Source of the DNA: Reclinomonas americana ATCC 50394
Lineage: Eukaryota
Direction of reading: 5' to 3'
Assembly: GCA_048213135.1 (NCBI GenBank)
Contig: PS015292.1
Location: 1-52,243 of the forward strand
DNA length: 52,243 nucleotides
The translations under genes and the position numbers were made by a program. The notes beneath the pieces were generated by a model. The model was not told the origin of the DNA and searched no databases. It saw nothing but the letters and a program-made list of their open reading frames with translations. This document shows positions 12 to 48,000 of this stretch, in pieces. Position 1 is the first letter of the stretch. The number at the start of each line of letters is the position of its first letter.

Positions 12-1851
12 TTATTTCAGCTTGCCACCCGGAAGGCCACCCGACTGCTCCGCGAGCGCGTCGTGCTTGGCCTTGGCGTCGTACTGCGGCGCGAGGCGGC
101 CGTACTGCACAATGACGTCCTCCGGCTTGAGGTCGCGCTTCTCGAACGTGCGGGTGAGGATGTCACGCACGCCGTCCGAGTAGCGGCGCTGGGCGTCGAG
201 GGTGGTGCCAGAATAGTGCGGCGTCAGGGCGTGGTTCGGGGCATTGCGCCACGGGTGGTCAGCCGGAGCCGGCTGCGGCCACCACACGTCACCAGCGTAG
301 CCGGCCAGGTGACCAGACTGAGAGTGCCAGAGTGCGTCAGCACGCGGAGCAAGTGATCATGAGAACACACAAACACTCACAACACCGACCTTCAGAGCCT
401 CCACCAGGGCGTCGCGCTCCACAATCTTGCCACGGGCAGTGTTGACGAGGTACGAGCCGCGCTTCATCTTGCCGATCAGAGTGCGGTTGAACAGGTGCTC
501 AGTGGCGTCGTGCAGCGGGCAGTTGATGGTCACCACATCGCAACTGTATTAATGGTGAGCGCACAATCGACAACATCTTGATATAGGGACGCACGCGACG
601 CAACGTCGACACGAGCTCATCCAGGCTGACGTAGCGGGCGCCAAGTTGCTTCTCCGTCTGTGCATCCAGACGGGCGTAGTCGGAGTACAGCAGCTCCTTG
701 CAGTCGAACGGCTTCAGGCGCTCCAGCACACGGCGGCCAATGCGACCGGCACCGACGGTGCCGACCACCTTGCCCTCCAGATCATAAGCGCACGGGTACA
801 CACCGACAATCGACGCCACGTGCCACTGGCCAGAGACGATCTGCTTGTAGGCGGGGATGTAGTTGCGGACGAGAGCGAGAATCTGCATGACGACGTGCTC
901 GGCCACCGAGACGACATTGCAGCCGGTGACCTCGGCCACTGCACACGAAAGACAACAACCGTCAGGCTCGTGCATGCATGTACAAAAGACACGTGCGTGC
1001 ACACGCGTACCGGTGATGCCGTACTCGCGGCAAGCGTGCAGGTCGACGTGATCCGACCCAATGCCGGCCGTGATCGACATCTTCAGCTTCGGCGACGCCT
1101 CAATGCGTGCCCGGGTAATGTACGCCGGGTGGAAGGGAGTCGAGATGACGACATCCGCGTCCTTCAGCTCCTTGTCGAACTCAGAGTTGGCGCGGTCCTT
1201 GTCGGAGACCACCACGAAGCTAACCCGCCGCAGAAGTCAGCAGCGATCGACGCAATGCAGAGAATGACACGACGACGTACCGGTGGCCACGGCTCTCCAG
1301 GAACTCACGGATGCCGAGCGCATTTTCGCGGCAACCCAGCAGACGCGGGTTCTTGGCAGCCTCAGCGCCGGCCTCGTAGAAGCTGTGTGCCAATAAGCAG
1401 TGAGCGTCATGACGCGGAGATGATGGACAGAGAGAGGGGCTCACCAGCCGACAATCTTCAGCGGCTGTCCCGACGACAGCGCCGCCAGATCGCGGTGCTT
1501 CGACGAGAAGTTGCGCACAGAGCTGTGGCGAGAGAGTGAGTGAGTGTTTGCCATGCGCGTGTGTTCATTTCCACCGACCGCGCTCACGCGACCCCACGCG
1601 CTTGTGCATGAGCGCTCACTACCACTCCCTGTATGCCAGCTGTGTGCTCATGCTCTCTGTGATGTGTGTGCAGCGTGGCGATGCGTGCCGAGATTCTCGT
1701 GTGACATGCGGAGAAAATCACTTGTCTCGGCATTCTTCGTGTTGCGCACGTGCTTCCCTCCCCTTCCGTTCTCTTTTCTGTACAAGAGATACTCTGCGTG
1801 TGCAACAGAGAAGAAGGCCGAGACAACTCACCGGCTCAGTCGCGCCAGCAT
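12..1851 (-). CDS. FDH: NAD-dependent formate dehydrogenase with predicted mitochondrial presequence (7 exons)
   Basis: The spliced product begins MLARLSRSVRNFSS...LKIVGCFYEAG. It contains [34 protein letters not shown], Rossmann [22 protein letters not shown] and PHYSGTT. Six GT-AG introns restore the frame. The stop is TAA at 12-14. Confidence 0.95.
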
Positions 1852-2380
1852 GACGGGAAACGAGTGAAAAACTTCGATGTTACGTGGCAGCCTGTGATTG
1901 TCTCTCATTGGCCATGATCACCCTCTGCACGACTACCCGAGTCTCGTGGCCAGCCTCCACAGCTGCGGCATGAATGCACACCTTCGATTCGCTGATTGCG
2001 CGCACCACACACTCTCTTTCTCGTCCACATAGAGCCTGACGACCTACGCCAAATTGCTTGTTTTGTGTTTTGTACTTCACGTCACACACACCGACACATA
2101 CCGCAGACACCACACATGCACGCACAGCAGAGAGAAGCAAGCAAGACGCATCCACAAGCGACAGACGTGGCGAGCAACAACAACGAGAAGAAAAAACACA
2201 GCCTCTCAGAAAAAGAGCTGCATTCCACTCCCCCTCCCCGTCACTCCCCACGCCCTCCACTGACAAGTCTCCGCATCTCACACACACACGCGCACACACA
2301 CAGCGCCTGCCAGCACGCAGGCAATCCTCCTTATCGTTCCACCCAAAGCAACATGCTGCGGACGGGCAACGTCGATGTCC

Positions 2381-3062: not shown

Positions 3063-5462
3063 ATGTCGAGCNNNNNNNNNNNNNNNNNNNNTCTCCTCCT
3101 TCTCCTCCTCGTGCTCCTTCTCCTTCCCCACCTCGCCTCTGTGCGCTCACACACGCACACATACAGAGACATCAAGGCCAGCAACCTGCTGGTGTCCAAG
3201 GAGGGCGTGGTGAAGCTGTCGGACTTTGGTGTCAGTGCGTGGTTGGTGGACTCGGGCGATCGGCGGAAGCAGCGACAGACGTTTGTGGGCACGCCGTGCT
3301 GGATGGCGCCAGGTGTGCATGCTTGCGCACTCCTCTGCTGGACACGGGCTCTTGAGCTGACGTTTTGCACAGAGGTAATGGAGCAAACGCGAGGGTACGA
3401 TTTCAAGGCCGATATCTGGTCGCTGGGCATCACGGCGCTCGAGTTGATCAATGGACGAGCGCCGATGCAGGATCAGGCGCCTATGAAGGTGCTGATTACG
3501 GTGCTCCAGGGGCCACCGCCGACGGTTGAGTCAACGGCCACGCCCGAGGTGGCGGCGGGCGTGTCCAAGTATTTGAGAGATTTTGTGGCTCAGTGCCTGC
3601 AAAAGGACCCGGCAGCGAGGTGCGTGTTGGTGTGCTGCGGGGAGAGAGAGAGAGAGAGTGAGAGAGGAACACGAGACTGATACTTGGCGTGTTGGCGGGG
3701 CAGACCAACGGCGGCGCAGTTGCTGGGACACAAGTTTGTGGCGTCAGTCAAAAAGCCTGAGGCCGTTTTGAGGGAAATTCTCGCGCACTCGGCGTCCTAC
3801 GCGGAGCGCGTGCAGGTAGGACTCAGTTACTGTTCCTACGCCTCGTTTCCATGCATCTCACTTCTTCTTAACAGCGCATGGTACGAGAACGGGAGGAGCT
3901 CATTGCACGGCAAGCAGAAATGGTGCCGTACGGAGCGCCGCCCGTGTCGGCCGAGCTGCTGACCGCGTTGCCGACTGTGCCTGATGGTGAACTCGCCGCC
4001 CCTCTCGCATATTGGCTCCCTGTCGTGTTATTCATCGAGCTTGTGTGTGTGCGTGTGGCAGAGTCGTCGCTGGTCACCATTGGTCGCAATTCGTTGAGAA
4101 AACCGGAGAGCATCGAGTGGGATTTTGATGACGAACCGCTGCCGACCGCAACTGCTGCGGCGGCTGCTGCTGCTCCAGCAGAGGGCGGAGCTAGCGGGTC
4201 GGGTTCTGCTGGTGCGCCAGCAGCGATTGCGGTGCCGCCGATTGTTCTCGGTTCAGCCGTCGACGACCGGTCACCCGCGGTGGAGGCGTCGTCAGCAGCC
4301 ATGGCTGCGGCCCCGGCTGCGCCAGCACATCCGCCAGCATCGGACGACGATGGGACGGAGGCTTCTCGGGTGCGTGAACATATGCACATGTGTTTGTGCA
4401 TGGAAGAAGAAAACTGTGCTCACACGTACTCGTTTTTTTAGGCGGAGCGTGTGGTCGAACAGCGCGGTCGGTTTACGGTGGAGACCATCGAGCACCCTGC
4501 AGGGGGACGTGACGGCGAAGGGGGAAGTGCTGCACGAGATGCACCTCCAGAAGCAGACGCACCACTGGAGAGACCTCACAGTTGTGTGGCATTTGCGTGC
4601 CCTCTTCACTCTCTTTCACAGCTTGCTGATCCCCTTCTCTCTCTCTCTCGCTGTACAGTCAGCAACACCCCTCCCAGCAGTCCGTACGTGACGCCTGGAG
4701 GTGGCGGCGATGGACCACACCAACCATTCGCACTGGCACCATCAACAGCAAGTGCGACGGCTGCCGCCGGCGGAGCTTCTGGTGCGGCCGCGAAGCCGCC
4801 CAAGGCCAAGCCGTCGCCACTGCCCGCCGATATTGCACCNNNNNNNNNNNNNNNNNNNNNNNNNNNNNNNNNNNNNNNNNNNNNNNNNNNNNNNNNNNNN
4901 NNNNNNNNNNNNNNNNNNNNNNNNNNNNNNNNNNNNNNNNNNNNNNNNNNNNNNNNNNNNAATGAGGCGTACGAGCGGTGGAGGCGGTGCGGGCTCTGGG
5001 TCGTCGGCTGCCCACGGTCTCGATCTCACGTTTTCCGACTCGGCCGCGGCGTCGGCGACCGTGCCGAGTAATGCGGCGGGACACGGGGCTCCCACCAATC
5101 TGCACGTGGTCGCTCCACCACACTCGGCGCCCAGCAGCGGCGCACCGAGTGGCAGCTCGTCACCCGAGTATCACGGCCACATTGCCGCATCGCCACCACG
5201 TGGTACATTACTCGGCACTGGTGTACTTGGCGAGCTCGGCTCCCCGCCCTTTGTGCAGCCAACGGTGCGCGATTGATGCAGCGTGTTTATATTGTGGGGA
5301 GTAGGTTTGACGGTATCCGCTGACACGATTTTATTGCGTGCGCTGTAGAATCGAGTCACGCTGCTGGAGGAGGAGGTGGCGACTCTGAAAGCGAACCTGG
5401 AGACGCTCACGGCGGAGAACCAGCGACTGAAGCGTGAGTTGGAGCGAAGGGGTGAAGAATGA
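3063..5462 (+). CDS. STE20-family (OSR1/SPAK/plant MAP4K-like) Ser/Thr kinase; N-lobe lost in a gap
   Basis: Motifs RDIKASNLL, DFGVSA, TFVGTPCWMAPEV, GYDFKADIWSLGITALEL and PMKVL are present. The tail has EWDF and RGRFTV and ends in a coiled coil with TGA at 5460-5462. The start at 3063 is inferred, since it abuts the gap at 3072-3091. Confidence 0.88.
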
Positions 5463-6941: not shown

Positions 6942-8960
6942 TCACTTGTCTCCGTCGCCATCCGATAACGATGCAGGCGAGGCGGAGCCACTCATCGCCT
7001 CCTCCTCGTCGCTGCTCTCATCCAGCGCCGTCAGCGGCACCCAGAACGCGACACGCAGCAGCGCAAAAGTGCCGGGGTAGTCGGTGCTGTGCACGTTGCA
7101 GATGAGCGCGTGCTGGCCACTCAGAGGCGGCAGCGCGTTCGATCCACTGGCGCCCTCCGCTGCCACGGCGACCGCGTCTGGCGATGCCGACAGCAGAGTG
7201 GCCAGCGTCAGCGAGCCCTCGTCCTGGTTGGTGAGGCGGTATGTCGTCGGCGCACAGTGAATCACCGCCGGCCCGCCGTGCGACCGCACACTCAGATCGA
7301 CCCCCAGCTCGCCACTGGCCGGCATGTAGGCGATGGGGTGTTGCATGGAGCCGTACAGACCCACAACGAGACCGTCGTACGTCTCTCCATCGCAAGTCTG
7401 GCGTGTGGCATACTGCACGGCCAGCTGTTGCGAGGCGTACAAGTCGACATACACCTGTCGGTGTGCGATTGGCAGTGGAGGCAGCGAGACGCGCGTGGAG
7501 CCTCCGGCGGAACCACCATTGCTGCGTGAGCTGATATCGGTGTCCATGGACTCCACCGCCAACGACATGCCGCCGTCGGCGGACTCACGAATGACCAGCT
7601 GCGGTCGCGCCTTGGCGGCGACCGCCTCGGCCGTCTCTCGCACCACCACACGCATCTCGGCGCCCGACGGACCCCACATCATGCTGGCGGTGCCGCCGCA
7701 CGTGCCGTCAATCGTGATGACGCTGTCGTCGCGGAGGCGAATGACGCCATGATGCAGCGGACCGGCATTCTGGCGACGGAGCAGATCCTGGCCCTGCGCG
7801 TAGAACATGTCGAGCGGCATCACCACTGCGCTTGTACGGTTGCCAAACGCGCCCGAACCGCTGGCGCCCCCGCGTGCACCATTCCGGAAGGGTGCCAGGG
7901 CGCCCTTTTGCGCCGACGACGGTGCGCTCGCGGAACGCGATGGTGTGGTCGACACGCGATCACGCCGCCACCGCCGCTGCAACGACGCCTGCTGCTCCTC
8001 CCCACGATCCACATTGGCATCGTCGACATCCATATCATCGACCTCGTCGTTCTCCCCCTCCTCATCATCCTCATCCTCGTCGTCCTCATCGTCGTCCTCG
8101 TCATCACTGCTGTGCAGCGACTCGCCAATCTGCGATCCGCCGCTCTCGGCACTTGTCCGACCGCGTCCGCGCTGTGCCAAGATGATCCACGGTCAGTGAT
8201 TATGTCGTGGCTCNNNNNNNNNNNNNNNNNNNNNNNNNNNNNNNNNNNNNNNNNNNNNNNNNNNNNNNNNNNNNNNNNNNNNNNNNNNNNNNNNNNNNNN
8301 NNNNNNNNNNNNNNNNNNNNNNNNNNNNNNNNNNNNNNNNNNNNNNNNNNNNNNNNNNNNNNNNNNNNNNNNNNNNNNNNNNNNNNNNNNNNNNNNNNNN
8401 NNNNNNNNNNNNNNNNNNNNNNNNNNNNNNNNNNNNNNNNNNNNNNNNNNNNNNNNNNNNNNNNNNNNNNNNNNNNNNNNNNNNNNNNNNNNNNNNNNNN
8501 NNNNNNNNNNNNNNNNNNNNNNNNNNNNNNNNNNNNNNNNNNNNNNNNNNNNNNNNNNNNNNNNNNNNNNNNNNNNNNNNNNNNNNNNNNNNNNNNNNNN
8601 NNNAACGACGTACGAACGAAAGGAGGAGAGAGAGAGAGAGGGAGAGGGAGAGAGAGGCACACATGCACACACACTTGCACACAGAGACGGAAAGAGAGAG
8701 AGACACGACACACTCACCGCCGAATTCCTCTGCAATCTCAGTCCATCGCTGACCGCGTGTGTCGACGAGCTCCACCAGTCGCTTGTCCTCCTGCAAACAC
8801 ACACATACACACACACACGCACACAGTGTGAGCAACACACAACTTGTCACTCTTCTCTTCTCTCTCTCACCTCCACTCCCCATCGCTTGCGCCGCTTATT
8901 GCGACTCTCGCTGCCATTGGCGTTGACGGGTGCACCGTTCTTGCTGCCACCACCACTCAT
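6942..8960 (-). CDS. Myb/SANT-domain protein (interrupted by a gap)
   Basis: The spliced N-terminus is MSGGGSK...RNKRRKRWGVE|EDKRLVELVDTRGQRWTEIAEEFG, i.e. a basic NLS plus a Myb repeat. After the gap is a 400+ aa same-strand ORF with a D/E tract. Linkage across the gap is assumed. Confidence 0.7.
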
Positions 8961-12500: not shown

Positions 12501-14204
12501 TGCACGAGTTCGCGCAGAGCCTGGAGCAATCCATTCAGGCGTCGCAGGAGGCGGGTGCCAATGGCGACGAACGGTACTACCGCCTCTCAATCGTCCCCNN
12601 NNNNNNNNNNNNNNNNNNNNNNNNNNNNNNNNNNNNNNNNNNNNNNNNNNNNNNNNNNNNNNNNNNNNNNNNNNNNNNNNNNNNNNNNNNNNNNNNNNNN
12701 NNNNNNNNNNNNNNNNNNNNNNNNNNNNNNNNNNNNNNNNNNNNNNNNNNNNNNNNNNNNNNNNNNNNNNNNNNNNNNNNNNNNNNNNNNNNNNNNNNNN
12801 NNNNNNNNNNNNNNNNNNNNNNNNNNNNNNNNNNNNNNNNNNNNNNNNNNNNNNNNNNNNNNNNNNNNNNNNNNNNNNNNNNNNNNNNNNNNNNNNNNNN
12901 NNNNNNNNNNNNNNNNNNNNNNNNNNNNNNNNNNNNNNNNNNNNNNNNNNNNNNNNNNNNNNNNNNNNNNNNNNNNNNNNNNNNNNNNNNNNGGCTGCAC
13001 GAACGCAACCGAGCGGCGGCCTCGGAGGAGGAGGTGCGTCGTCTGACGGATCAGACGCGCTTGTTGAAGGAGATGGAGGAGGAACGTGAACGGTGAGTGC
13101 ACATCCTGGCCTTGTCTATGAACGAAGAGGAAGAAGAGTGATTGACCTTATTGTTGTGTGTGTGTGTATGTGCAGACAAGCAGCCGCTGAGAAGCAAGCC
13201 ACTGCTGCGCTGCTGGAGCAGCTGTATCGGCAATTGGAGGGCGAGAGGCAGTCGGCACGGACACAGTTGGAGGAGATGCGTGGGGAGATTGAGCGTCGAC
13301 AGCGGGCACTGAACGACACGGAGCAGCAGCTGCGCGAGGAGCGCGACCTGTTTGCCGAACAGCGCACACAGTACGAGGAGCGGCTGTCTGTGTTGCAGAG
13401 GTCGCTGTCGGAGGGAGGGCGACACTTGACGGAGAATCTGTCGCGTCTCAAGCACGACGAAACGGAGCGCCTGAACGAGCTCATCAAGGAGAACAGCCGT
13501 CTGCATCAGCAGATTGAGCGCATGCGACAGGAGATGGCCGAGAAGGAGCTGTCGACGTATCGCGAGTTCAAGGACATTCAGCAGTCGTTTGATCGCTTCC
13601 AGCAGCTGAGTCGAGATCGTGAGCGCATGCTGCAAGGCACCGCCTCCGCCAACGAGCCACCATACATTCCGCGGCTTTCCTCTGCCGCCAATGGCGGCTT
13701 GGGTATGGCGGCGGCGGCCGGCGGCAAGGCGTCTGTATTGCAGGACAATGCACTGTCACTGCCGGCATGTTGCGTCTCTATTCTGCGCCACACTGTCATC
13801 TTTTCTTGTCATCGTGCTGACTGCTCGTTTCTCCGCCAGCTTCGGGTGCCAGCAGCAGCACCATTCGCACACCCATGTCGCAGACGCCACCAGTCGCATC
13901 GGTACCGACTGCTGCAAGCAGTGGTGGCTACGGCGGCAGCAACGACACCGACACTCCCTTGTCGCTCTCGGAGCTGGTGGCTCGTCGTCTTCAGGCGCCG
14001 ACACCCTCCGCCGACACTGCAGCCTCCACCGTGTCACCCATCCGCGCACCAGGAGCCGCCGTGGCCGGAGTCGCCGCGCTCTCCTCCTCGGCTGCATCGG
14101 CTCTACGCCCCGCATCGGTGGGATCGGTCGGACTGCGCGAGGGCTCACCAATCTCCACAGCCACACTCTCCGAGTCCAGTCCACCACCGAGCAGCGAGCG
14201 ATAG
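9511..14204 (+). CDS. Large coiled-coil protein (E/R/Q/L-rich, at least 11 exons) of unknown function
   Basis: Starts MDEYLSQLDARLQYQ with a poly-Q tract. Heptad-rich exons are joined by phase-compatible GT-AG introns. A Ser/Ala-rich tail ends at TAG 14202-14204. It spans the gap at 12599-12992. Confidence 0.8.
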
Positions 14205-20080: not shown

Positions 20081-20233
20081 NNNNNNNNNNNNNNNNNNNN
20101 NNNNNNNNNNNNNNNNNNNNNNNNNNNNNNNNNNNNNNNNNNNNNNNNNNNNNNNNNNNNNNNNNNNNNNNNNNNNNNNNNNNNNNNNNNNNNNNNNNNN
20201 NNNNNNNNNNNNNNNNNNNNNNNNNNNACGCCG

Positions 20234-25779: not shown

Positions 25780-25816
<37 letters not shown>

Positions 25817-35314: not shown

Positions 35315-38300
35315 ATGTCGAGCAGCGATGAGGAGATCGATCTCGACGCCTCTGGCAGCGAGGACGACTATCAACCGCCGCCGCAACGGCCGATTACGCG
35401 ACATGGAGCACCGCCAATGCCGGGTCCGACTCGCCAGGCGTCGTTTGCTCAGCGTGATCCTTATGCCTCGCGACTGAGGTCTGTGTGCTGTTCTCCTCTT
35501 GTGTGCGTGTCTGTGCTCATGTGTGTTGTGTAGTGAGTCGCCGGCGTGGGCGGGTGGTGGAGGAGGTGCTGGACGGCCGGGAGATGCACTGGCGCAGGCG
35601 TTGGCCAATGCGCAGCGACGAAAGGCCTTGGAGGCGCAGCAGCAGCAGCAACAGCAGCAGCAGGCGATGGCCAGGCAGCAGCAGCAGGTGAGGCGCGGTG
35701 GTCCACTGGCCTCGGATCAGTTGGCTGCCAAGGTATGTGAGCAAAGTGTGTGGGACTCTGGTGGCGATCCTCACGCGTTGTCGCTTGCAGTTTCAGGCCC
35801 GTGATCGACTTGCCGGTGCGTTCATGTGTCTGTGTCTGTGTGGCAAAGCGTGTAGCGGCGACTGAGACGATTCGTGTGCAGTTGACTCGGACAGCGACTT
35901 GTCGGACATGTCGCCGCCGATGTCGCGGTCGAGCCGGCCGACGTTGTCTGTGTCTGCGCCACCGCCGCCTGGTCGATCGGCGGCCGCGGCTGAGCGGTTG
36001 TTGGCGGAGAGCGACTCGGACAGCAGTATTGAACGAGTTGCGTGCTCTCTGCTCTCTCACCTCACATCACATCACGCACCTTTGTTAACCTGGTCCGCGC
36101 ACGCCAGATCATGCGCGATCACTTGCCGGCGAGGGCCAGTGCACAGACGGTGACGAGGCAGGCATCAGAGCCGACTCTGCGCTCGGCACTGCGCACCGAT
36201 GCTGGTGGCGTGATCCGATCGGACGAGTTTATGCGCTCGAGCCGCGAGGACCGGCGACGACTGGTCAAGTTCAAGGAGCCGTCACCGAGTCCCACTCGAC
36301 CGCTCGGGTCCACCACAGTGAAGACACCGGCGGGCCAGTCGGCCGCGGTTGCGGCGCCGGCGCCCACAAACTTTTCCGCGCTGAGTTTCAAGGCGTTCAC
36401 CGCCACTGCAGAACCCGCGGCGCCGGTGCCCGCTGCTGCAGCTACGGCCTCGCAACCACCTCGTGTCGCCAAGAGCAACTCTGCGCCGCAGTTGAATGCA
36501 GCCGCGGCCACGCCGGCTGCTTCAGTACCGCCAGCGCCGGCAGCGCTCGCCGCCAGCAGTGCGCCAACAAAGCGCATGCAACTGCCGGCCTCTGCACTTC
36601 AACTGCAGGGCAACAAGCCACTCGGCTCCACCGCTGCGCGTGTGAGTGCTTCTTTCGCTTGCCATGGCGACGTGAATCGTTCTGCATTCTGATTATTTTT
36701 TGTGTGTGTGTGTGTGCAGTCAACGAGTGCAGGACCGGCAGCCACGACACCGACAGCGTCTCGCTTCCTCACCGCCCCTGCCTCACCGGGTCTCGGGGAC
36801 TCGCTGTCGGACGAAAGCCTCTCCATCGGCTCACCTTCGGTGCTCGAGTCGACTGACGACGAAATAGGATCACCAGTGGCTGCACGAGCGACACTCCAGT
36901 CGCGACTGACTACTGCACCGACCACTGCTGCTACTGCTGGTAGTCGTGTGGGAGTTGCTGCGCGTGCTCCAGTCGTCGAATCGGACGAGGAAATCGAGGT
37001 GGAGTCGGAGGAGGAGTTGAAACCGATTCGCAGAGGTGGTGGTCCACCAGCAGCTGCGCTGGCACAGGGAGTCGCCCTGGCGCGTGCGGCTGCTGGTGCA
37101 GGTGGACCACCGATTGCAGCAGACAAGGGAGGACCGAGTATTGGAAGGGGAGCTGGTGTTGCTGCTGCAGCTGGACGTGGCGGTGCTGCTGTTGTTGGTG
37201 GAGGCCCTATGATTGGTGCTGGCAGAGGAACAACTACTGCTGCTGCTGGCAGCGTTGGTGGTGGTCGTGGTGGTGGTGGTCCACTGTTGCGTGCAGGACA
37301 GGCAGCAATTGGTTCACCTCCCACGCCGCCATCGTCGCCTTCAGAGGTCGAAGAGGACACACCACCAAAGATAAGTGCGGTTGCTGGCCGTGGTGGTGGT
37401 GGAAGAGGTGGAGGTGGCGGTCCGCTACTTCGTTCCACTTCACTGACTACGGGAATCGGAGGAGGAGGAGGAGGAGGAGGAGGGAAAAGTGCACCGGCCG
37501 CAGTGCGATCGCCGCCGAGTCCGCCAAGTCCATCATCGGAAGACATTGATGTGGACAGTGATGAGGCACCACGAAAACCATTCCGAGGCGGTGGTGGACC
37601 ACCACTGGCTCGGCCTCCGCAGGCGGCAGTCTCGGCGTCGCCAGCGAGGAAGCCAGACGTGCCCGGCAAGGCTGCGAGTGGTGGTGGTGGACCTCTGCTT
37701 GCGCGCTCTGTGGACACTGCGTCGTCCAAGGGTGGTCCGCTGATGACGCCCGCTGCTGTGTCGAGGTCGACAGAGCAGTCGCCTCTCGCGGCGCAGTCGC
37801 AGCAGCAGCGAAGGAGTCTGGACGGACCCGCCTCCATCAGTGGCCTCTCCTCCATTTCTCAGGCGTCACAGAACGACTCGGCGAGCGACATTTCCGTGTC
37901 GATCTCGTTCGAGGGGAGCTCCATTGCGTCAGAGGACGGCATTAGCAACAAGCCGAAACCCGCAGCGAAGCCTGCCGCTGCGCCGTCACGTGCTTCAGGT
38001 GCTGCCGGCTTGCAGTCGGGTGCGGCTCTCGCTGCTCTCGGTAAGAAGGCCGGATTCATGACGGTGGCCGACTTGAAACCGGCGGGAGACTCGGCCGACG
38101 AGGTCGAATCGCTGCCACCCACCGAGTCGGAAGTAGTTGCGTTTTGTCGACACGCGCAAGTGAGGTGAAGGAGGTTGGCTGACATTGTCGCAGAGCGAGG
38201 TGGAGAGCGCAGTGCAGAGTGAGTCCGACATGTCACATCGTGGCAGTCCGCCGCAGCGAAGCACCGGCGGTCGTCCCACGGCGCAACGCAGACGATCACC

Positions 38301-40229
38301 CGTGGCCGTTGATAGCTCGGTGCGTTGGTTGTGCGTTTGGTTATCACGATGCCAGTTACTCAATTGCTGTTCGCGCAGATCGAGGAGTCCCTCAACCAGT
38401 CTCGTTCTCGGTGCGTTGCATTTGACGTGATGAACATTACTTGACTCCTTCGACTGGGAACATCTCACATGCGTTATTGTTGCTGACAATGGTGCAGATT
38501 GGACTCAAGCGCCATCTCTGAGGATATCAGTGTAGATCGCTCGCGAAACCAGCGGTACGTGCAGTCACAGCGTTCGAAGACCCTGCTCGTGACTCATAAC
38601 TCTCATGTCCATACAGTCGACCAGCGCCAGCACCCGTGTCATCGACAAACAACAAGGCAAGCCGGCAGGATGGTACGTGCAAGTTAGCACATGCAGCTGC
38701 TCGATTCAGCTGACACACACGGCTCGTAACAGTGAGTTCGCCGGCCTCGGTTGCCTCCTCGTCGGTGGTGGAGAGTTATGACGACGACGATTTCGAGGAG
38801 GCCAGTGAAATGTCGAGCGCCGAGCAGCCGCAGCGAGGACCGGCGCGGCTTCTGTTTGCAGGACCCAAGTCCACCATGCGCAAGTCGCCGGTGCATAGCA
38901 AGTTGCGAGTGGATCATGTGTGTCATTGTTTTCCAGTAATCAGGACACCTCACACTGAAAACCGTCGACAGTTCGGGTGAATCGTTCGACGAGGAGACAG
39001 TGTCGGAGGAGAACGCTGCCGACGAGAAGCCTGTGCCAGCCAAGAAAGCGGTTCAACAGCAACAACAACAAAAGGCAGCACCAGTGGCGGCAGCCAAGAC
39101 GCAGCCGGCGGCGACACGCAAAGTCGTGGCCAGCCCGAGCGTGGAATCGTACGCCGAAGACTTTGACTCGGAAGATGCCGAGTCGGTTGTTGAGCCACCG
39201 GCGTCGGCCAAGTCCACGCCTACAACAGCAGCCAAACCCGCAATCAGCAATGTTGTCGCGCCACCACAGCCTCCACCAGCGCCGCCAGAGGTGAGTGCCT
39301 CTCTGCACGTGTTTCACGTGCATGCATCTGACTTTTACTATACACAGCCACCGGCTCCCGTCGTCGCTGCTGCGCAGCCACCACCAACCGCATCACCATC
39401 CAAGCCGACTCCACAACAGGCGTGGCCGGAGAACCCCGACGGTACGACGATGATGAGCGAGTGCTGTTTCTTTCTTCCCATCCATCTTAGCTCTCTGTGT
39501 TGTGTGTTGTGTGCAGTGGTTCGCTTCGCGCAGTCCGACGACCGATTCCAGCGGCGCAAGAAGATGCGTCGGCGGCGCTCAGAAGTGTTCTCCGGCGACT
39601 CGTCGCCCTCGGAGACACTGCTCGGATCGCGCCGCGAGTCTGCGACGGGTAGCAGCAGTGGACGGCGCGCATCCACCGCACGCTCCGACGATCGCGAGTC
39701 ACTGCAAGCGGTGCCCGACCGACTGTTTCACCGCGTGGGCCGACTGCCACCGTCGGTCGTGGATGCAGTGCTGGACAAGAGAGACATTGAGGGTGAGTGT
39801 TGTGGAGTTCAAAGGAGACAACAAGACGACGACTCACGTTGGTGTGGCACCAGAGCTGGCAAAGAGGGATCCCACGCGACTCTTGGCCGACGAGCTGGTC
39901 CTGCAGCACGTGGTGGTTTGTGTGAATGTGATACTGTATGCGAGATTGAAGCCGTTCTCACTCCTCCCTTCACAGTTGATGCAGTCGTACGTGACCATGG
40001 CAAGCAATTTGACGCGCGGCTTTGCCGCCACCACACGCCTGTCGACATTCCAGTACACCACACTGGAGGATACAAAACGAGTGCGTTCTATAGGAGGGAA
40101 AAGATGAGGCAAAGGAGTGCTCACTCTTAGTCGCGCGCACAGTACATTGCGGAGAACCGACCGCCACCGCTAACGATGGAAGAGGCCATGCGATTGGTGG
40201 AAGAGGAGGAGTCACGGGAAAGCCGGTAA
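35315..40229 (+). CDS. Long low-complexity protein with a C-terminal DUF4614 (C19orf44-like) domain
   Basis: The spliced C-terminus [33 protein letters not shown] resembles the C19orf44/DUF4614 terminal motif as I recall it. Upstream exons are Ser/Ala/Gly/Pro-rich and joined in phase. The stop is TAA at 40227-40229. Confidence 0.7.
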
Positions 40230-40412: not shown

Positions 40413-41816
40413 ATGGCTGACGCAGGAGTACCGGAGCTCGATCTGGGCGGCAAGAAGAAGAAGAAGACTACTTCGGGCGACAAGGCCGACAAGCCCGTCA
40501 AGGCCAAGAAGACCTCGTCAGAGACACCCACACCCACACCAGATGGTAAGTGATGCGCCCTCACACCTCACATACACACGCGCGCGTGTGTGCGCGTGTG
40601 CCACGAAAGTGTCGATGTCTTGATGTACCCTTTCGTTCTCGCACACTCACACACACGCACACACTCTCATCCCACACTGGTGCCCACACACAGCCTCTGC
40701 TCTCTCTCTCTCTCTCACATACACACACACATACACGCACACTCTTGCGCCTTGTGTATGTGTTGTCCTTGTGCAAGTGGTGATGTCCATGCTCATCACT
40801 CTCTCTCTCTCACACACGCAGACGCCCCCGCACTGGAGCTCGGCGAGAAGAAGAAGAAGAAGAAGGTGGTGAAGAAGTCAGCAGACAGCGAAGGCGGCGA
40901 CACCACACCCGCAGCTGAGGGTGGCGAGGAGCCCGAGTTGGTCCTGGAAAAGGCACGCTCTCTCTCCCCCTCTTTCTGCCCTCCTCCGCACTCACGCGCG
41001 TTGTGACACGGTGTGCAGAAGAAGAAGAAGAAGAAGACGGTCAAGTCGGAGGGCGAGTCGGCCGAGTCGACACCGACAGCAGCAGCAGCGACGGAGAAGC
41101 CGAAGAAGAAGAAGCCTGCGCCTGCGCCAGTGAGCAACGATGCAGAGGGAGGTGCGAGTGATGATGACGTGGAGGCAGCGGCAGGCGATGATGCAGGTGG
41201 TGACGACGATGATGATGGAGAGGACGATGGAACGGGCTTGTCGCTGACGGAGCAGGTGGAGGGCGAGGAGGAGACCATGGGCGGACTCTACTCGTACTCG
41301 TTCCTGCTGGGCCGCGTGCTCGACATTATGTCGTCGCGCAACTTGGGAGGCGTGCGGAAGCGCACGCTCAAGCCGCCGCAGGTCGTCAAGGATGGCGCGC
41401 GAAAGACCGCCTTTACGAACTTTATCGAAATGTGCAAGTCGATGAATCGTGAGCCCGACCACGTGCAGGCCTTCTTGCTGGGTGAACTCGGTACCACTGG
41501 CAACCTCGACGGCAACGATGCGCTCATTATGCGCGGTCGTTTCCAACCCAAGGGCATCACCGCCATTCTTCGTCGTTACATTAGTTGCGTGCGCCCGACT
41601 GCGGTTGTCTCTCTTCATCTCTTTCCCCCGGCCTGTCGCTGACAGCTTGTGTTAGACGAGTACGTGGTGTGCCACATGTGCCGAAGTCTGGAGACGGTAC
41701 TAACAAAGGACCCGGCGACAAGGCTGATCCGATCACAATGCGAGAACTGCGGTGCCAGTCGCTCTGTGCAGTCGATCCACAAGGGCTACACGGCCGTCAT
41801 TCGTCGTCGCAAGTGA
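40413..41816 (+). CDS. EIF2S2: Translation initiation factor eIF2 beta subunit, 4 exons
   Basis: Poly-Lys K-boxes, YSYSFLLGRV, KPPQVVKDGARKTAFTNF, GELGTTGNLDG, GRFQPK, LRRYINEYVVCHMCRS and the CENCGASRSV zinc finger. Confidence 0.96.
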
Positions 41817-42024: not shown

Positions 42025-45000
42025 ATGAACGACGAGCTCATGTCGTTGCTCCAAAGCCTCCAAGCCGGCATCATGGGCGGTGAGTGTCTCTCTGTGCTTA
42101 CACACACACTGTCTCTGTCTGTCTGTCTGTGGTGCGACACGAGCGCGTGAGCATCAGCTGTCAGAGAGAGAGAGAGAGATTGAGTGAGACTGTTTGAGGA
42201 CCTCACTCCGAGAAACACACACAACTTGCGCGCTGAGTGTGTGTGTGCTGTCGATGAGCGCATGTGACTGTGTGAAGAGAGAGAGAGAGAGAGAGCACGC
42301 GCGTGTGTGTGAACATCACTCACACGCCAATCATCATCATCATCGGTTGAAGAGGAGTGAGCAAGAGAATCCCTTTTTTGCCCACACTCGACACCAATTC
42401 TCTTCTCTCAATGAAGGTGGCGGCGGTGGAGGCGGCGGAGGCGGAGTCTTTGGTGGTCTCCTGCGCGGCTTGCAAGCCGACGAGGAGGCCGTGCAAATGG
42501 AGAGTCTGAACGAGCTCTGCAACGTGCTCAGCATGTCCACCGAGGAGAGTCTGGGTGGTGCGTGGAGCTTGCCAGTGTGTCGGCTTGCTTGCGTGCTTGC
42601 TGGCGAGGAGTTGACCATCTTGTCTATGTGAGTAGGAAGCGGCTTCTCGGTGGACAACTATGTGCCGACTCTGGTGCACTTGCTGGAGATGGAACACAAT
42701 CCCGACATTATGCTGCTGTCTGCGCGTGCGCTCACCTATCTGGTGCGTGTGTATGCGTATGTGCGACCGCACCCATAGCAGTGTTGTTTTTCTACTCACG
42801 CGATGGGCCTGCAGGTGGAAGCGCTGCCGCAGTCGGCCACGTCGATTGCGGCGCGTGGTGGTGTCAAGGCGTTGTGCGAGAAGCTGTTGGTGATCGAGTA
42901 CATTGACTTGGCGGAGCAGGCGCTGTTGGCGGTGGAGAAGATGTCGGTGGAGAGTGGCGACGCTGTCCTCAAGGTTTCGGCACTTGTGTTGCACTCTGCA
43001 CGCTCTTCTTTTCCTGCTCACACTTGCGCAGGAGGGCGGTCTGATGGCCGTGCTGTCGTTTGTCGACTTTTTCCCCATGCACTTGCAACGCACGGCGGTG
43101 ACGGCGGCGGCCAACATGCTGCGTGCACGCATTCCGCGTGACTCGTTGCACTTTGTGCGCGACGCGGTGCCGCTGCTGGAGAACCTTCTCGTGTACAGCG
43201 ATGGCAAGAGTTGCGTGTGATGTTTTCCCTCTGCCTTTGCTTGTGCAAGCGGGCGTGCTGACGGGATTGCAGTTGTGGAGAACGCCTGTATGGCGCTGAC
43301 CCGTGTCGGCGACGCACTCGCCCGGGACACCAGCAACATTGCGCCGGGTCAGTCGCTGTCGGCTCTGATGCGCACACGCTCGTCACAGGCGGCAGCGGCG
43401 GCGGCAGAGGAAGAGGTTTCGCCGGAGGAGCGTCGAGCTGGACTGCAGTGCATGGCCACCGAGTCGCTGGTGCTTCGTCTCTTCAATGTGGTCTCGATGG
43501 GAGCCGAGTCGCAGCTGCTGAGGTGCGGGAGTGTGAACTTCTTGTGTGTGTCCGTGTGTTTGTCGAACTGACTTGTTGTTTCTCGATTGCAGTGAAACCA
43601 CTCGTTCCTCTGTGCTTCGGTTGATTGTGCGTCTGGTGTCGACGCATCGGCGTCTCACACTCGGCCTGCTGCACGGCAATGCCGCGCAAGTGCTCGCCTC
43701 CGCACTCGCTGCCGGTGCGGTGTCCCGTCCAGCTTTCTAAGCGCGTCGAAGAGAGCACTCACATTTGGTTGATTGCAGGGGCAGGAAGCAGCGGTGCGGC
43801 CATGGGTGGACAGGAGGTGTCGTCCGACTTTGTCGACGGATGCATGCGCCTGTTGTGTCAGATGCTGCCGGATCTGGAACAAGGTGTGTGTCTCCTCGTA
43901 TGCCATTGCTGCTGCAGCAAAATTCGTGCTCACGTGCTTGAGGAGCAGACACTTTCGAGGCACTGGCCGAAGCGTCGTCGCAGATTGGAGCCGGTGCCAC
44001 AGGGAGGGAGTTGCAGGATGCGTGGTCAGAAGAGTTTGCGTTGTACACGGACTTTTGCACGGTGCGTGGTCGTCTATCTTAATCAATGCTTCTTCCGTGA
44101 CTCGTCACCCATTTATGTGTCTCCCCTAATTCCAGCGCATCTTGGCGCCCGTGATGCACGTGTTCGCCTCGGCTGTGTTCCCCTCGGTGCGCCACTCGTC
44201 GCTCATTGTGTGCGCACGAGTCGTCCAGTCGGCGCCTGCCGAGGCGCTGCGTGATGTGCTGCGAGTTGCGACGTGCCACACTCGCGAATGCACTCACAAG
44301 TTGACAACAAGCACTGAACTCTTGCTTTGTCGCGCACAGGACGTGCCGTTCTCGTCGTTTATTGCCAGTCTCATGGGAAGCAGCGATCTCGGCATTGTGG
44401 CCACCGCCATGGAACTGGCGGAGGTGCTCGTAGATAAGCTGCCCGACATTTATCGTGCACTCTTTATCCGCGAGGGAGTGACCACGCAAGTCCGTCGCCT
44501 GGTGCAAGGGTTTGTTGTGAGCCCACTTTAATCATTACAACCCCGGTGTTCTCATACAGCTGGTGCAGGCGCTCGGGTCGTACGGTACCTGCAGTCGTCA
44601 AGACAACTTCGTTTTCCCCGGGAATGCCGCACGTCAGCCGAAGCTTTGACGCGGCACAGTCGCCGTCGTTCTTGCACACGCTGTCGGACACCAATCTCAC
44701 GCATCTCGGTGAGAAAAGCGCACACGGAGCGTTTCTCGCCTCTCATCTTGTGCACTCATCATCGGTGCAGATTTGGAGGGTGTGGTGGTGCAGCAGGCGC
44801 GACGACTGGAGCGCAAGTATCTGGAAACTGGCGCGGATGAGGATGCGATTCTGGAGAGCGAGCAGCTAACGCGGCTGCGCGAGGTTTGTGCGATCAGCAG
44901 CTCTCGATAAAGGGCATCATCGTCTCACCTACCGTGCTGTTAGTTGGCGGACCAATTGCTCCAGTGCATGATGGACCACCAGCGACAGTTCGAGCGCCTC

Positions 45001-48000
45001 AATCACCCAGAGGTGATGCCGTCGGTCGAGGAGGAGGAGGAGATGCTTGTCGGTCATGTCGGTGACGAAGGTGTGCAAGGGGTGGAGAAGTACAGTTGTC
45101 ATCGCTCGTGCTGAACGCCATTTTCACAGGAATGGACGACGATGGTGCACAGGCCGCCATGTCCATGTCGCTGTGCTCGGAGGACAAGATCGGTGGCGCG
45201 CCAGCGTGCGCCGGTGGCGATGAGTTCTTCAGCAGCCCGCCGGCATCACCGGGCATGCCGGGCGATGAGCGTCGCTCGCAAGGATGGCCTCGCTCCACTN
45301 NNNNNNNNNNNNNNNNNNNNNNNTCAGCCCTTCAAAGTCCGCCTCCAGCGGCGTTGCGTCGTTGAACGTCGTCTTGTGAGCTACGTGGCTCGTCTCACTC
45401 TTCGTCTGCGCAGAGGGGACGCAGCAAGCATCACCATCGCACAGCAGCTCATCGCGCGGCCGTCTGGAGGCTGCCCTCAGCAGCGCCCTGAATTCTCAGT
45501 CGCAAACAGTGCTCATTGAGCCGCTGGCCACGGTCGGCGCCATTGAGGATTACGTGACACAGCGCATCGAGAAGGTTGGCGGACGCGCATCTTCGGCCGA
45601 CGACGACGGTGGTGACAGGTGCGATGCTGGGCACGCCTGTATTTTCTACCGCATTCCATCCACTGCTAACCTTCTCTTTGTCGTCTCCCCAGTCGCAGCA
45701 GCTCCGACGAACGCACCCGCGTCAATGTGATGATCAATGGTGTGGTGTTGAGCCGCGCACTGACGGTGCTGCAGGCGATTCACCAGTTCGAGGAGCACAG
45801 TTGCGATGGCTGTGTGACTCACTTCTTCATTTTTTGTAATGCTCACTTTGATGGGCGCGCAGGTGGCGCTGAGTCTACTGCGTCCCCCAAGAACGGCATT
45901 CGCCACTTGTGGGATCGAGGTGTGTGCATGGGTGCTGTTTTGTTGGTGTCCTTCTCCTTCAACGGGTCTCTCACTCTGCCTGCAAACACACAGTGCACAC
46001 CATCGAGTACACGGTTGGCGCTCGTACCTCCCGCCGCATCAGCACCTCCATGGGACCGCCGCTGGCCGCGGCCGCAGCACATCGTCGACGCCGCGCAGCG
46101 CCGCACAAGAGTCCAGCGTCTTTTGTGTCGGTGTGTATCTGTCTGTACTTTGTTGACCATTGTCAAGTCGTGCTGTGCTGATCGCCGCTGTGCGCGCGCG
46201 CGTACGTAGGATGCTTCGGAGTGTCCAATTCAGATGGGCGTGGGCCCATTGGGTGCCCTCGAGCGTTTCATGAGTGAGCTGGCGCTGCGACAGCAGAGCG
46301 CCGACACCGATCCGCTGTCGACAGAAGCGACGCGTGCCTACGGCCACTACGACAGTGGTGATGCCGACTGCGATGCAGCGCTCGCCTTGCTGTCGACCAT
46401 CACTGCTCTCAGCCAGTACGCGCCTCTTCTCCTGCAGTATTCGCATCCGCTGGTGGACGACTTGTTCGATGGTTCGTTCCACCCAGGCAGCCACGCGTTA
46501 TGACACCTGTGCTCACTCCTCGCTTTGTTGTCGCAGAGGAAGACGACGATTCGGTTCCCACGCAAATGGATGCCGATGATGCACCGGCCGCGGCTAGCGG
46601 TAGTACGGTGTGTCTCTCTAATTGTGTTGGAAGAGAGAGGAGAGGAGACGAGGCTGGAGACTCACAACTGTCGTACAGTCTCTGTCGATTGTCACTCCGA
46701 CATCTGGCGAACCGGCGGCTGCCAGTGGAGATTCCGCGACCAAGGGGCTCTCGGCTGCGCGTGCCAAGGCCATTGCCGCCGCTCATGTGCCACACAATCT
46801 GTTGTACAGCCCGCAACTGACGGCCAAGTTGAGCCGACAGCTGCAGGATCCCATCTTGATTGGCTCCGGAACGGTGCCGGAGTGGTGCCTCGCGATTCCG
46901 CTGCACTATCCGTACCTCTTCACGCTGGAGGCCAGGTTTGTGCGCGCACACACACAAGTATGTGACGTGCACTGTCCGCCTATTCATCCTCTGTGTGTGT
47001 GCAGGCGTCTGTTTGTCAGCATGACGTGGACAGACTCGAACCGTGCGCTGTCCAAGCTGCAGGACATGTTGGGTGATCGTTCTCCGTCGTCGGACGCACC
47101 ACGACCTGCACGGGCAAGGAAACACAAGATCCGCTTGTCACGCCATCGCATGCTCGAGTCGGCGATGAAGGTGATGGAGGTGTATGGCCAGCAGCGCGGT
47201 ATTCTCGAATTCGAGTACTTCCACGAAGTGGGCACTGGACTGGTGAGCAGCGAGAAGGGCGGTTTCCACTGGCTGCTGGTACTCATCTCTTTGTTGGCAG
47301 GGCCCAACCATGGAGTTCTACGCGCTGGTCTCGCTGGCGCTCCTCCACCGTCGGCTACGCTTGTGGTGGGACATGGGCGACTCGCGTGATCCGCGCAGCC
47401 CGCAACGTACCAACAGCGGCAACTTGCTCAGTGCGACCGGTTCACTGCTGTACACGCCAGGGTCGCCACCACCGTTGGCTCCTTTCGAGGAGAGTGATGG
47501 TGGTCGTCGTGACAGCGGCATCTTCATGGCGGAGGACGAAGAGGAAGGCGGTGATGGTGCGCATCACATGTTGGCGGATGGCGAAGACGAGGAGTTTGGT
47601 GGTGGCGATGGTGGCGACGACGAGGATGCTGGAAGCCCGCGTTTGTCTGCCGACTCGTCGCGTCGTTGCGTACGCAATTGTGTTCTCGCATGTCTGTTTT
47701 TTGCTAAACTTGCACATTGCCTCTTGTCTTCATTTCACGCGCCTGCAGGAGAGGTTTGGTCTTTGTCATGTCCCTCCCAGCAGAGGTTCTCTTGAAGCTT
47801 ACTCTTTGTTTTCCTCTCTCAACGCAGGAGCCTGTGCCGACACCGTTGAGTCGCGATGCGCTGGATGGCGACCGCTACGTGCAGTCGCCATTTGGCGTGT
47901 TCCCGCGGCCCATCGATCCGTCCAAGCCGCCACCCATCGTCATGTATGTGAGTGTGGCGGTGACGAATCACTCAGCCGACGATCCCGATCCCGAACCAGA

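Follow-up and report, generated by a model that had tools for sequence, protein, structure and literature searches.

The 52,243 nucleotides of Reclinomonas americana ATCC 50394 analysed here (contig PS015292.1, hereafter the window) are a single sample from an intron-rich organism and raise the question of whether introns that begin with GTTGCG form a second class of 5' splice site and, if so, how such a donor is read. The initial annotation had listed 23 donors of this kind in 11 genes, put their share at roughly 15% of introns and described their signal as the usual donor with a one-nucleotide offset, which would be read by U1 in a displaced register or by a variant U1 or U6 snRNA. The analysis placed the lineage outside the fungi, the green algae and the red algae.

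All 23 hexamers are present in the window sequence at the positions and on the strands assigned to them, but the genes number 12, since the donors at 25647, 26168 and 26267 sit in a separate HAD-like gene and not in the kinesin gene. GTTGCG occurs 70 times in the window compared with 51.6 ± 6.6 times in shuffled sequence (70 was reached in none of 100 shuffles), so that the 47 non-donor sites represent the background level. Cut sites were placed by the GT–AG rule and codon-level homology; the homology is also compatible with a cut one base away, because the frame would be kept. An ab initio gene model was given only GT and AG at intron ends and nothing else on donors (the GT/AG-only model). 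The claimed donors, followed by three related ones, are as follows; scores are local frame/coding scores.

544–604, minus strand: GTTGCG intron, formate dehydrogenase (FDH) gene; 61 nt, phase 2; homology-pinned.
13769–13839, plus strand: GTTGCG intron, coiled-coil protein gene; 71 nt, phase 1; GT/AG-only model, score 19.6, without a homology pin.
18729–18794, minus strand: GTTGCG intron, mitochondrial carrier gene; 66 nt, phase 0; GT/AG-only model, score 19.8.
22418–22482, minus strand: GTTGCG intron, membrane protein plus kinase gene; 65 nt, phase 2; GT/AG-only model, score 18.1, without a homology pin.
22808–22813, minus strand: GTTGCG hexamer, claimed donor; motif present; best acceptor score −1.1; the GT/AG-only model takes donor 22826 instead.
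24973–25036, minus strand: GTTGCG intron, kinesin-13 gene; 64 nt, phase 2; homology-pinned.
25574–25647, minus strand: GTTGCG intron, HAD-like hydrolase gene; 74 nt, phase 1; open-frame continuity, not pinned.
26109–26168, minus strand: GTTGCG intron, HAD-like hydrolase gene; 60 nt, phase 1; open-frame continuity only, the flanking exons (12 and 14 codons) being too short for searching.
26207–26267, minus strand: GTTGCG intron, HAD-like hydrolase gene; 61 nt, phase 2; open-frame continuity only.
28921–28990, plus strand: GTTGCG intron, coiled-coil protein gene; 70 nt, phase 2; GT/AG-only model, score 26.4.
29497–29555, plus strand: GTTGCG intron, same coiled-coil gene as 28921; 59 nt, phase 0; GT/AG-only model, score 19.9.
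32082–32087, minus strand: GTTGCG hexamer, claimed donor in EFL1; used in 7 of 36 homologue alignments, with introns of 35 or 50 nt.
33770–33837, minus strand: GTTGCG intron, EFL1 (ribosome assembly GTPase); 68 nt, phase 1; exact in 35 of 36 spliced alignments.
33975–34049, minus strand: GTTGCG intron, EFL1; 75 nt, phase 2; exact in 31 of 36 spliced alignments.
34415–34476, minus strand: GTTGCG intron, EFL1; 62 nt, phase 0; exact in 25 of 36, same donor with another acceptor in 7 more.
36037–36107, plus strand: GTTGCG intron, low-complexity protein gene; 71 nt, phase 0; GT/AG-only model; weak, score 6.7, near tie with a 110-nt alternative.
38136–38193, plus strand: GTTGCG intron, same low-complexity gene as 36037; 58 nt, phase 0; score 19.9; predicted after a learned donor table was added.
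38902–38971, plus strand: GTTGCG intron, gene without assigned function; 70 nt, phase 2; score 18.4; not chosen by the full models.
41584–41655, plus strand: GTTGCG intron, eIF2-beta gene; 72 nt, phase 1; homology-pinned.
43210–43272, plus strand: GTTGCG intron, HECT (TRIP12/UFD4-like) ligase gene; 63 nt, phase 1; exact in 41 of 42 spliced alignments.
44265–44339, plus strand: GTTGCG intron, HECT ligase gene; 75 nt, phase 0; exact in 35 of 42 spliced alignments.
45353–45413, plus strand: GTTGCG intron, HECT ligase gene; 61 nt; weak, score 4.5; adjoins the N run 45300–45323; homologue alignments scatter.
45800–45862, plus strand: GTTGCG intron, HECT ligase gene; 63 nt, phase 1; score 14.0; conservation too low for a pin.
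14987–15043, plus strand: related donor GTTGAGT, Rag/Gtr GTPase gene; 57 nt, phase 0; GT/AG-only model and Pfam profile continuity.
17240–17317, minus strand: related donor GTTGAGT, TPR protein gene; 78 nt; GT/AG-only model; local score ambiguous.
22589–22651, minus strand: related donor GTTGGG; 63 nt; GT/AG-only model, score 9.9.

An AG-ending intron of 58–75 nt could be fixed for 21 of the 23 claimed donors, with those at 45353 and 36037 weak. The two exceptions are 22813, for which a search by local frame/coding score found no positive-scoring acceptor, and 32087, which lies in a poorly conserved part of EFL1 where 15 of the 36 alignments skip 32110–31936 instead. Eight junctions are pinned without gaps by protein homology; EFL1 contributes three, the HECT ligase two, and FDH, kinesin-13 and eIF2-beta one each. 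The FDH exons, whose intron was also called by the GT/AG-only model, align to PDB chain 6t8y on either side of residue 256, whose codon is split, one ending at 255 and the other starting at 257. In kinesin-13 the alignment to KIF2C chain 1v8j stops at 108 and resumes at 110 (split codon 109), and chain 3edl_D agrees. The eIF2-beta exons end at 275 and resume at 277 of the human chain 28zu_F; against yeast 3j81_l they end at 230 and resume at 232 (reading 230/231/232). The carrier junction, which had been named alongside these three as fixed by conserved protein, is pinned on one side only; the upstream exon matches positions 3–71 of the 96 in the Mito_carr profile, the Pfam match stops at its final residue and the downstream half is unpinned. 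Among the related donors, 14987 is pinned by profile continuity, its flanking exons matching Gtr1_RagA 94–128 (residues 2–36 of 39) and 137–230 (from residue 6) and placing the junction, by extrapolation, between profile positions 131 and 132; 17317 and 22651 are model predictions.

The 13 further GTTGCG junctions are placed by frame and coding evidence only. Ten of them fit open frames under GT..AG-only modelling and three fit a hand-built open frame, that of the HAD-like gene, in which removal of eight GT..AG introns leaves a single frame reaching a stop codon. The exons of this gene are very small; a weak HAD match is confined to the exon neighbouring intron 25647, and a PDB search with the exon upstream of 26267 returned no match.

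The GT/AG-only model recovers 13 of the 23 claimed GTTGCG donors (16 of 26 with the related donors included), and GTTGC ranks in its top three donor pentamers, with 14 of 114 introns. Its counts are approximate, because it was exact at only 14 of 24 homology-pinned junctions. In this model GTTGCG starts 13 of 114 introns, whereas independent donor positions would yield 0.39 (p = 3 × 10^−16), and the hexamer thus stands apart from a single position-independent donor signal, as had been proposed. It also accounts for 5 of the 20 pinned junctions in EFL1 and HECT. Across 63 loci from other eukaryotes, the same aligner placed 251 introns, none of which began with GTTGCG. Depending on the set, the share is ∼11–25% of introns, or about one in six. 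The sequence evidence therefore supports the view that GTTGCG(T) donors are genuine and common, and that they form a statistically distinct class which independent positions would not yield by chance.

In other respects these introns resemble their neighbours. All 21 fixed introns start with GT and end with AG (CAG in 20, TAG in one), and their median length is 65 nt compared with 66 nt for normal introns. A branch-like CT[GCA]A[CT] is present in 18 of 21, compared with 41 of 53 normal introns; its median distance from the 3' end is 16 nt and 17 nt, respectively. The GTTGCG sites thus appear to be genuine 5' ends of ordinary short GT–AG introns handled by the major spliceosome.

T at +3 is common in the organism generally (13 of 24 pinned donors), and the window also contains GTTTG and GTTCG donors, which keep G at +5 and −1. 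Among pinned donors, G at −1 is found in none of the eight GTTGCG cases compared with 14 of the 15 others (p = 1.8 × 10^−5); in the wider sets it is found in 0 of 23 claimed GTTGCG donors, 43 of 53 GT[AG]NG donors and 7 of 11 GTTNG donors of the model. Since G is rare before GTTGCG in the window anyway (4 of 47 non-donor sites), what these counts establish is a loss of the usual enrichment, which need not mean active avoidance of G. On the intron side, T follows the hexamer at +7 in 16 of 23 donors compared with 11 of 47 non-donor sites (p = 5 × 10^−4), mirroring the normal donors, 34 of 53 of which have T at +6. This composition supports the description given in the initial annotation, since it fits a normal G|GTGCGT displaced by one base and not an inserted or bulged base. 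Shifted donors nearly always carry the tail GCG (23 GTTGCG, two GTTGAG and at most one GTTGTG), whereas GCG, GAG and GTG are about equally used by normal donors, and a plain shift on its own does not explain this near-exclusivity.

The explanation that we favour, with somewhat better than even confidence, is that these are real major-spliceosome GT–AG introns whose donor is the normal G|GTGCGT shifted one nucleotide inward, with a U1-type snRNA docking out of register. The first G of the intron would take the place of the usual last exon G, the next U would face the U1 base to which G+1 is usually matched and UGCGU would fill the places of +2 to +6. Once U1 had docked with this one-nucleotide offset, the catalytic core (U6, U5 and Prp8) would later set the cut at the only available GU, one base upstream; both the docking register and this later choice are inferred. 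Such a scheme would need a special property of the snRNAs or proteins of the organism. It might be a single U1 complementary at positions 5–6 to the C and G of GCG, or a second U1 variant.

Predicted pairing bears on this need. The mean duplex energy with the standard U1 5' end is −7.0 kcal/mol for normal donors, −2.7 kcal/mol for random GT sites and −1.07 kcal/mol for GTTGCG donors, so that textbook U1 pairs with the latter worse than with random GT sites, whatever the register; the shifted register is adopted in only 4 of 23 folds. A human-type shift with ordinary U1 is therefore not supported as an explanation, and of the two options offered by the initial annotation a variant U1 or U6 is the more likely, because the standard duplex is weaker than that of random sites. 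When the 256 variants of U1 positions 5–8 are ranked, the standard sequence is fourth for normal donors and 240th for GTTGCG; variants with G at position 5 have predicted energies of −5.3 to −7.2 kcal/mol. A search for snRNA genes within the 52-kb window found none. Because the textbook 5' end barely pairs with GTTGCG, the snRNA that reads it, whether the U1 of the organism or a second U1, is predicted probably to differ from the textbook sequence. We tentatively extend this to a two-code major spliceosome, possible though less likely than not to exist, with either a single U1 of altered 5' end or a second U1 (perhaps U6) variant dedicated to GUUGCGU. In the single-U1 form, the almost universally fixed U1 5' end would have changed, for example to G-C at positions 5–6, giving a perfect match to G|GUGCGU while retaining pairing with GUUGCGU one base out of step. 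In either form, roughly one in six introns would rely on the two-code arrangement.

The same energies could instead mean that U1 has no part in the matter and that the hexamer is read by U6, U5, Prp8 or a protein. The ACAGAGA box of U6 pairs with the donor and, displaced by one base, would need G+6 and U+7. GTTGCGT has both, and its shifted likeness would then reflect U6 pairing GCGU one base further in. However, in these same genes a standard-like U1 suits the normal donors well, both in energy and in rank, and U1-based recognition therefore operates in the organism; we regard U1-free reading as unlikely.

Somewhat less probable again is a bulge, in which U1 and U6 keep their normal pairing to G+1 and U+2, a single U at +2/+3 loops out and the following GCGU pairs as though it were +3 to +6. 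GT-T-GCGT can indeed be read as a normal GTGCGT with one extra T, and Tan et al. (2016; PMC4856993) accept a one-nucleotide +2/+3 bulge for a few human donors (68 predicted; curated human total 4270 sites, 2.1% of all). A bulge would leave the last exon base facing U1 C9, and G at −1 should therefore stay enriched; its absence from every pinned and claimed GTTGCG donor contradicts this, and the bulged register was chosen in 0 of 23 folds with standard U1.

We consider it very improbable that the junctions are mis-modelled or that a loose donor signal happens to produce the hexamer by chance. Placement by frame, coding or open-frame logic for 13 of 23 junctions, two donors without a fixed intron, the moderate accuracy of the ab initio model and the general frequency of T at +3 would allow it, but eight gap-free junctions are pinned by unrelated protein families, the excess over independent positions is large and the aligner produced no such donors elsewhere. 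Still less credible is that the introns are introners, copies of a mobile family carrying a fixed 5' end. The hexamer is repeated over the 3' junction (CAG|TTGCG) in two of 21 introns (604 and 18794), like a target-site duplication, but boundary repeats of at least six bases are expected ∼0.5 times per 114 introns compared with these two, no common sequence extends past +7 (9-mers are shared by 10 of 253 pairs, 4.0%, and by 52 of 1378 normal pairs, 3.8%) and lengths and 3' ends are those of other introns. Minor-spliceosome introns would supply a second sharply defined donor class without G at +5, but we give this reading almost no credence, as GTTGCG is unlike the U12 donor RTATCCTT, the U12 branch site TCCTTRAY occurs in 0 of 21 GTTGCG introns while 18 carry the motif of normal introns, and to our knowledge no U12 share approaches 15%.

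The favoured reading, a normal donor displaced by one base, has partial counterparts elsewhere. U12-type introns, served by a U11 snRNA of their own, likewise add a discrete second donor code to genes that also use the main one; their motifs differ from those seen here, and in their 3' halves GTTGCG introns are identical to the major class. Entamoeba donors read GUUUGU and similarly tolerate or prefer U at +3, but keep the normal register, whereas GTTGCG lacks G at both +5 and −1. For human 5' splice sites, bulged and asymmetric-loop registers were reportedly described by Roca and colleagues in 2012. Such sites share a non-canonical alignment of donor and U1 and, in PMC4856993, include GUU-type donors (bulge +2/+3); in the window the −1 composition of GTTGCG donors speaks against a bulge. 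The closest likeness is to human sites in the shifted (+1) register (Roca & Krainer, 2009), which PMC4856993 describes as rare and atypical: the consensus lies one nucleotide deeper than the cut, U follows GU and the last exon base loses its role. The human sites have an AAGU-type tail and pair well with standard U1 (the test oligonucleotide of PMC4856993 measured −6.5 to −6.8 kcal/mol), whereas the GTTGCG class makes up ∼11–25% of introns, carries a GCGU tail and has negligible predicted pairing with standard U1. A one-base donor shift, otherwise known only as a human rarity, thus appears here in about one intron in six.

The window is nuclear DNA of a eukaryote dense in genes and introns, with a G+C content of ~58% over its 52,243 bases. 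Our own gene models place ~24 genes on both strands with 114-132 short introns; the recognizable genes encode formate dehydrogenase (FDH), a Rag/Gtr GTPase, a mitochondrial carrier, kinesin-13, a putative HAD-like hydrolase, EFL1, eIF2-beta and a TRIP12/UFD4-like HECT ligase. No snRNA gene was detected in the window with Rfam (0 matches at the gathering score), and at E <= 1 only MIR2646 (25 bits) and sno_ZL1 (21 bits) were matched, both weakly. Several genes are interrupted by eight runs of N (1,556 bases together), across which the reading frames seem to run on:

3072-3091, run of N
4840-4960, run of N
8214-8603, run of N
12599-12992, run of N
16099-16287, run of N
20081-20227, run of N
45300-45323, run of N
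51145-51415, run of N

The initial annotation had claimed GTTGCG as an intron 5' end at 23 positions, and the hexamer is present at all 23 on the strand claimed. It occurs 70 times in the window compared with 51.6 +/- 6.6 times in dinucleotide-preserving shuffles, none of 100 of which reached 70; subtraction of the 23 claimed donors leaves 47, equal to background, so that the excess of the motif equals the claimed donors. Introns were then modeled with any GT as the start and any AG as the end, using no donor model. The model learned its terms for coding potential, intron composition, acceptor, branch and length over successive iterations, and only introns with G at +5 were used to train the intron terms so that the GTT class could not teach itself. 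At convergence, the 114 model introns most often began with GTGCG (16), GTGAG (14), GTTGC (14) and GTGTG (12), followed by GTTTG (5), GTACG (4), GTATG (4) and GTTCG (4). Sixteen of the 26 claimed donors (GTTGCG and related) were recovered exactly, including 13 of the 23 GTTGCG donors, by a model of moderate accuracy that matched 14 of 24 homology-pinned junctions exactly and whose counts are approximate. From the frequencies of T at +3 (31), G at +4 (23), C at +5 (27) and G at +6 (30) among the 114 introns, independent positions would predict 0.39 GTTGCG donors where 13 were seen (binomial p = 3e-16), in agreement with the claim that they form a distinct class.

Junctions were pinned by searching exon translations one by one against PDB sequences, with the following results:

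FDH upstream exon: residue 108 of the 110 in the exon is aligned to 253 of chain 6t8y, which by extrapolation places the exon end at 255
FDH junction: the split codon is 6t8y residue 256 and the downstream exon runs from 257
Kinesin-13 junction: the upstream exon reaches residue 108 of KIF2C chain 1v8j and the split codon is 109
Kinesin-13 downstream exon: the second residue is aligned to 1v8j residue 111, making the first 110
eIF2-beta junction, human chain 28zu_F: ends at 275 and restarts at 277, with an intron of 72 nt
eIF2-beta junction, yeast chain 3j81_l: the exon ends at 230 and the next starts at 232

The eIF2-beta donor at 41584-41595 (+) reads GTTGCGTGCGCC, with a normal-looking GTGCGC donor five bases into the intron that a donor-matrix gene finder would favor; this inner donor is excluded by homology, as its use would spoil the RRYI-N-EYV spacing. 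For the two long genes, we wrote a spliced protein-to-DNA aligner based on BLOSUM62, GT...AG boundaries and a flat intron penalty, with nothing else. Three GTTGCG junctions of EFL1 were exact in 25, 31 and 35 of the alignments of 36 homologues, and two of the HECT ligase in 41 and 35 of 42. The GTTGAGT donor at 14987 is pinned by the continuity of the Gtr1_RagA profile and the mitochondrial carrier junction is half pinned. We regard it as highly probable that the GTTGCG introns are real.

Some individual assignments fared less well. No intron was fixed at the claimed donors 32087 and 22813, and 45353 and 36037 are weakly supported. Donors 25647, 26168 and 26267, originally placed in the kinesin gene, belong to a separate gene at 25490-26603 (-), in which a single open frame remains once eight GT...AG introns are taken out; three of these introns start with GTTGCG and one with GTTCTG, and some exons are very small [e.g. 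21 nt (26417-26437) and 11 nt (25984-25994)]. Its tentative assignment as a HAD/SDT1-like hydrolase draws on one poor match in the PDB (E = 0.56) and on what we take to be motifs of the family. Searches of the very short exons of this and the kinesin gene against PDB and Pfam gave either no match or E = 0.56, and a protein search with the ORF 24925-25611 (-), which is largely non-coding, gave no match. In the HECT gene, 34 of 42 homologue alignments skip 729 nt at 49054-49782 (+); this is far above every other intron length and the segment therefore probably comprises several introns and unaligned exons.

As a control, the same aligner with four of its queries was applied to 63 metagenomic EFL1 loci of other eukaryotes. 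Junctions on which at least three of the four queries agreed were retained, yielding 251 introns, of which none began with GTTGCG and 14 had T at +3; the commonest donors were the usual GTGAGT, GTATGT and GTAAGT. Among the well-supported junctions of EFL1 and HECT in the window, the corresponding figures are 5/20 (p = 1.3e-6) and 9/20 (p = 4e-6). The GTTGCG class is therefore a property of the organism and not a product of the method. Its share comes to 13/114 in the GT/AG-only model, 5/20 in these two genes, the best verified, and ~23/150 in the count of the initial annotation.

T at +3 is common throughout the window, being found in 13 of 24 homology-pinned donors compared with 14 of 251 in other eukaryotes in the same analysis. 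Pinned examples are

35124 (-), donor with T at +3
42974 (+), donor with T at +3
46936 (+), donor with T at +3

Donors with T at +3 fall into two kinds, GTTNG and GTTGCG. The former (GTTTG and GTTCG) retain G at +5 and at -1 (7 of 11) and are therefore read in the normal register, whereas GTTGCG donors have neither. Among homology-pinned donors, G is found at -1 in 14 of 15 of other types and in none of eight GTTGCG donors (Fisher p = 1.8e-5); the larger sets give 43/53 and 0/23 (p = 5e-12). Since G precedes only 4 of the 47 non-donor GTTGCG sites, the donors simply miss the usual enrichment at this position. A is found at -1 in 12/23 GTTGCG donors and 13/47 background sites (p = 0.06). T at +7 is present in 16/23 donors versus 11/47 non-donor sites (p = 5e-4), comparable to normal donors, 34 of 53 of which have T at +6. 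The evidence at -1 and +7 thus bears out the proposed shift by one nucleotide, in which x/GTTGCGT (the solidus marks the cut) is equivalent to xG/GTGCGT with the first intron G changed to T and the cut placed one base upstream.

To describe pairing, each donor (-4 to +9) was folded against the textbook U1 5' end, with pseudouridines and proteins ignored. The mean duplex energy is -7.0 kcal/mol for normal donors, -2.7 kcal/mol for random GT sites and -1.07 kcal/mol for GTTGCG donors, only four of 23 of which adopt the shifted register with this U1. When U1 positions 5-8 were varied in all 256 combinations, the textbook sequence came 4th in the ranking for normal donors and 240th in that for GTTGCG donors. 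Predicted pairing of both classes is stronger when position 5 is G (GTTGCG, -5.3 to -7.2 kcal/mol), and GTTGCG donors fit best when, in addition, position 8 is A or G (-9.4 to -11.4 kcal/mol). Human shifted sites, as described in PMC4856993, carry an AAGU-type tail and pair well with ordinary U1. The suggestion that a shift of this type with ordinary U1 explains the class does not carry over unchanged, the duplex here being weaker than at random GT sites. The near-exclusive use of GCG likewise points away from the unchanged human precedent: the shifted class comprises 23 GTTGCG, two GTTGAG and at most one GTTGTG donor, whereas GCG, GAG and GTG are about equally frequent in the normal class, and the C and G of GCG seem to add binding energy that the textbook U1 cannot give. 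Weak pairing and the GCG bias together therefore favor a non-textbook U1-type snRNA. We lean, with moderate confidence, towards a mechanism in which such an snRNA, either one altered U1 or an additional U1 variant, would dock through its non-textbook 5' end in the shifted register, and the catalytic core would then set the cut at the only GU.

In a bulged register, the U would be looped out and the last exon base would still lie opposite C9 of U1. This arrangement predicts that G is kept at -1, but it is not, and none of the 23 GTTGCG donors adopts it in the folds with textbook U1. Donors relying on the exon side alone seem to exist too: the EFL1 intron at 31469-31539 (-), found in 35 of 36 homologue alignments, has the donor CAG/GTCATT with no G at +5 or +6, and CAG/GTCTCT donors are predicted by the model at 14488 and 14802 in the Rag GTPase gene.

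The bodies of GTTGCG and normal introns were also compared. Median lengths are 65 and 66 nt, a CAG 3' end is found in 20/21 and 47/53 and a branch-like motif in 18/21 and 41/53, respectively. A 9-mer is shared by 10 of 253 pairs of GTTGCG introns and by 52 of 1378 normal pairs; GTTGCG introns have no sequence in common beyond +7 and hence do not form a mobile family of introns. Two of them repeat the hexamer over the 3' junction (CAG/TTGCG), at 539-544 (-) and 18724-18729 (-), so that the same 6 bases stand as a direct repeat at either end of the intron; with ~0.5 expected per 114, such repeats are not clearly above chance as a sign of intron gain. A U12-type reading finds its branch motif in none of the 21 GTTGCG introns.

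Conservation in eukaryotic gene expression is among the strongest at the 5' end of U1 and at the G in intron position +5, and to our knowledge out-of-register donors are known solely as rare exceptions that came to light through genetic work on human cells. A species that uses them as a mainstream class would be suited to studying where U1 binds as distinct from where the cut is made, and would show the limits within which U1 and U6 can drift and how donor codes evolve. Many of the genes in this genome will be wrongly annotated by gene finders trained on just one donor matrix, because 12 of the ~24 in the window have at least one GTTGCG intron.

In a collection of 5.8 billion proteins, no identical or close proteins were found (best identity of a conserved exon, 60%) and the intron-less 363-codon ORF 6945-8033 (-) had no match; the collection apparently lacks the proteins of this organism. 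A metagenome scan with an EFL1 exon retained 80 loci, none a close relative (best identity 56%); these loci supplied the aligner control. In a quick EFL1 tree, the window protein groups neither with the fungi, which form a fully supported clade, nor with green or red algae; its place is beside a protein with 46% identity, on a long branch. No report of GTTGCG or GUUGCG as a donor class was found in a literature search that left supplementary splice-site tables aside, where a mention may be missed, and the work on U1 registers, among the matches listed, concerns human sites or therapy only.

Mastigamoeba balamuthi is unlike the window: its introns measure 137 nt and number 3.4 per gene, and its spacers are 1.3 kb long (PMC8136499). 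Plasmodiophora brassicae, with introns of ~56-68 nt, a ctgac branch motif and 276-bp spacers (PMC2483917, PMC13746701), is similar in intron length, CTGAC motif and spacer size, which is a resemblance only; the accessible portions of its intron literature yielded nothing on 5' sites. In human, all non-canonical registers together make up 2.1% of donors, with 68 predicted sites for the +2/+3 bulge (Tan et al., 2016; PMC4856993), whereas here one hexamer alone accounts for 13 of the 114 model introns.
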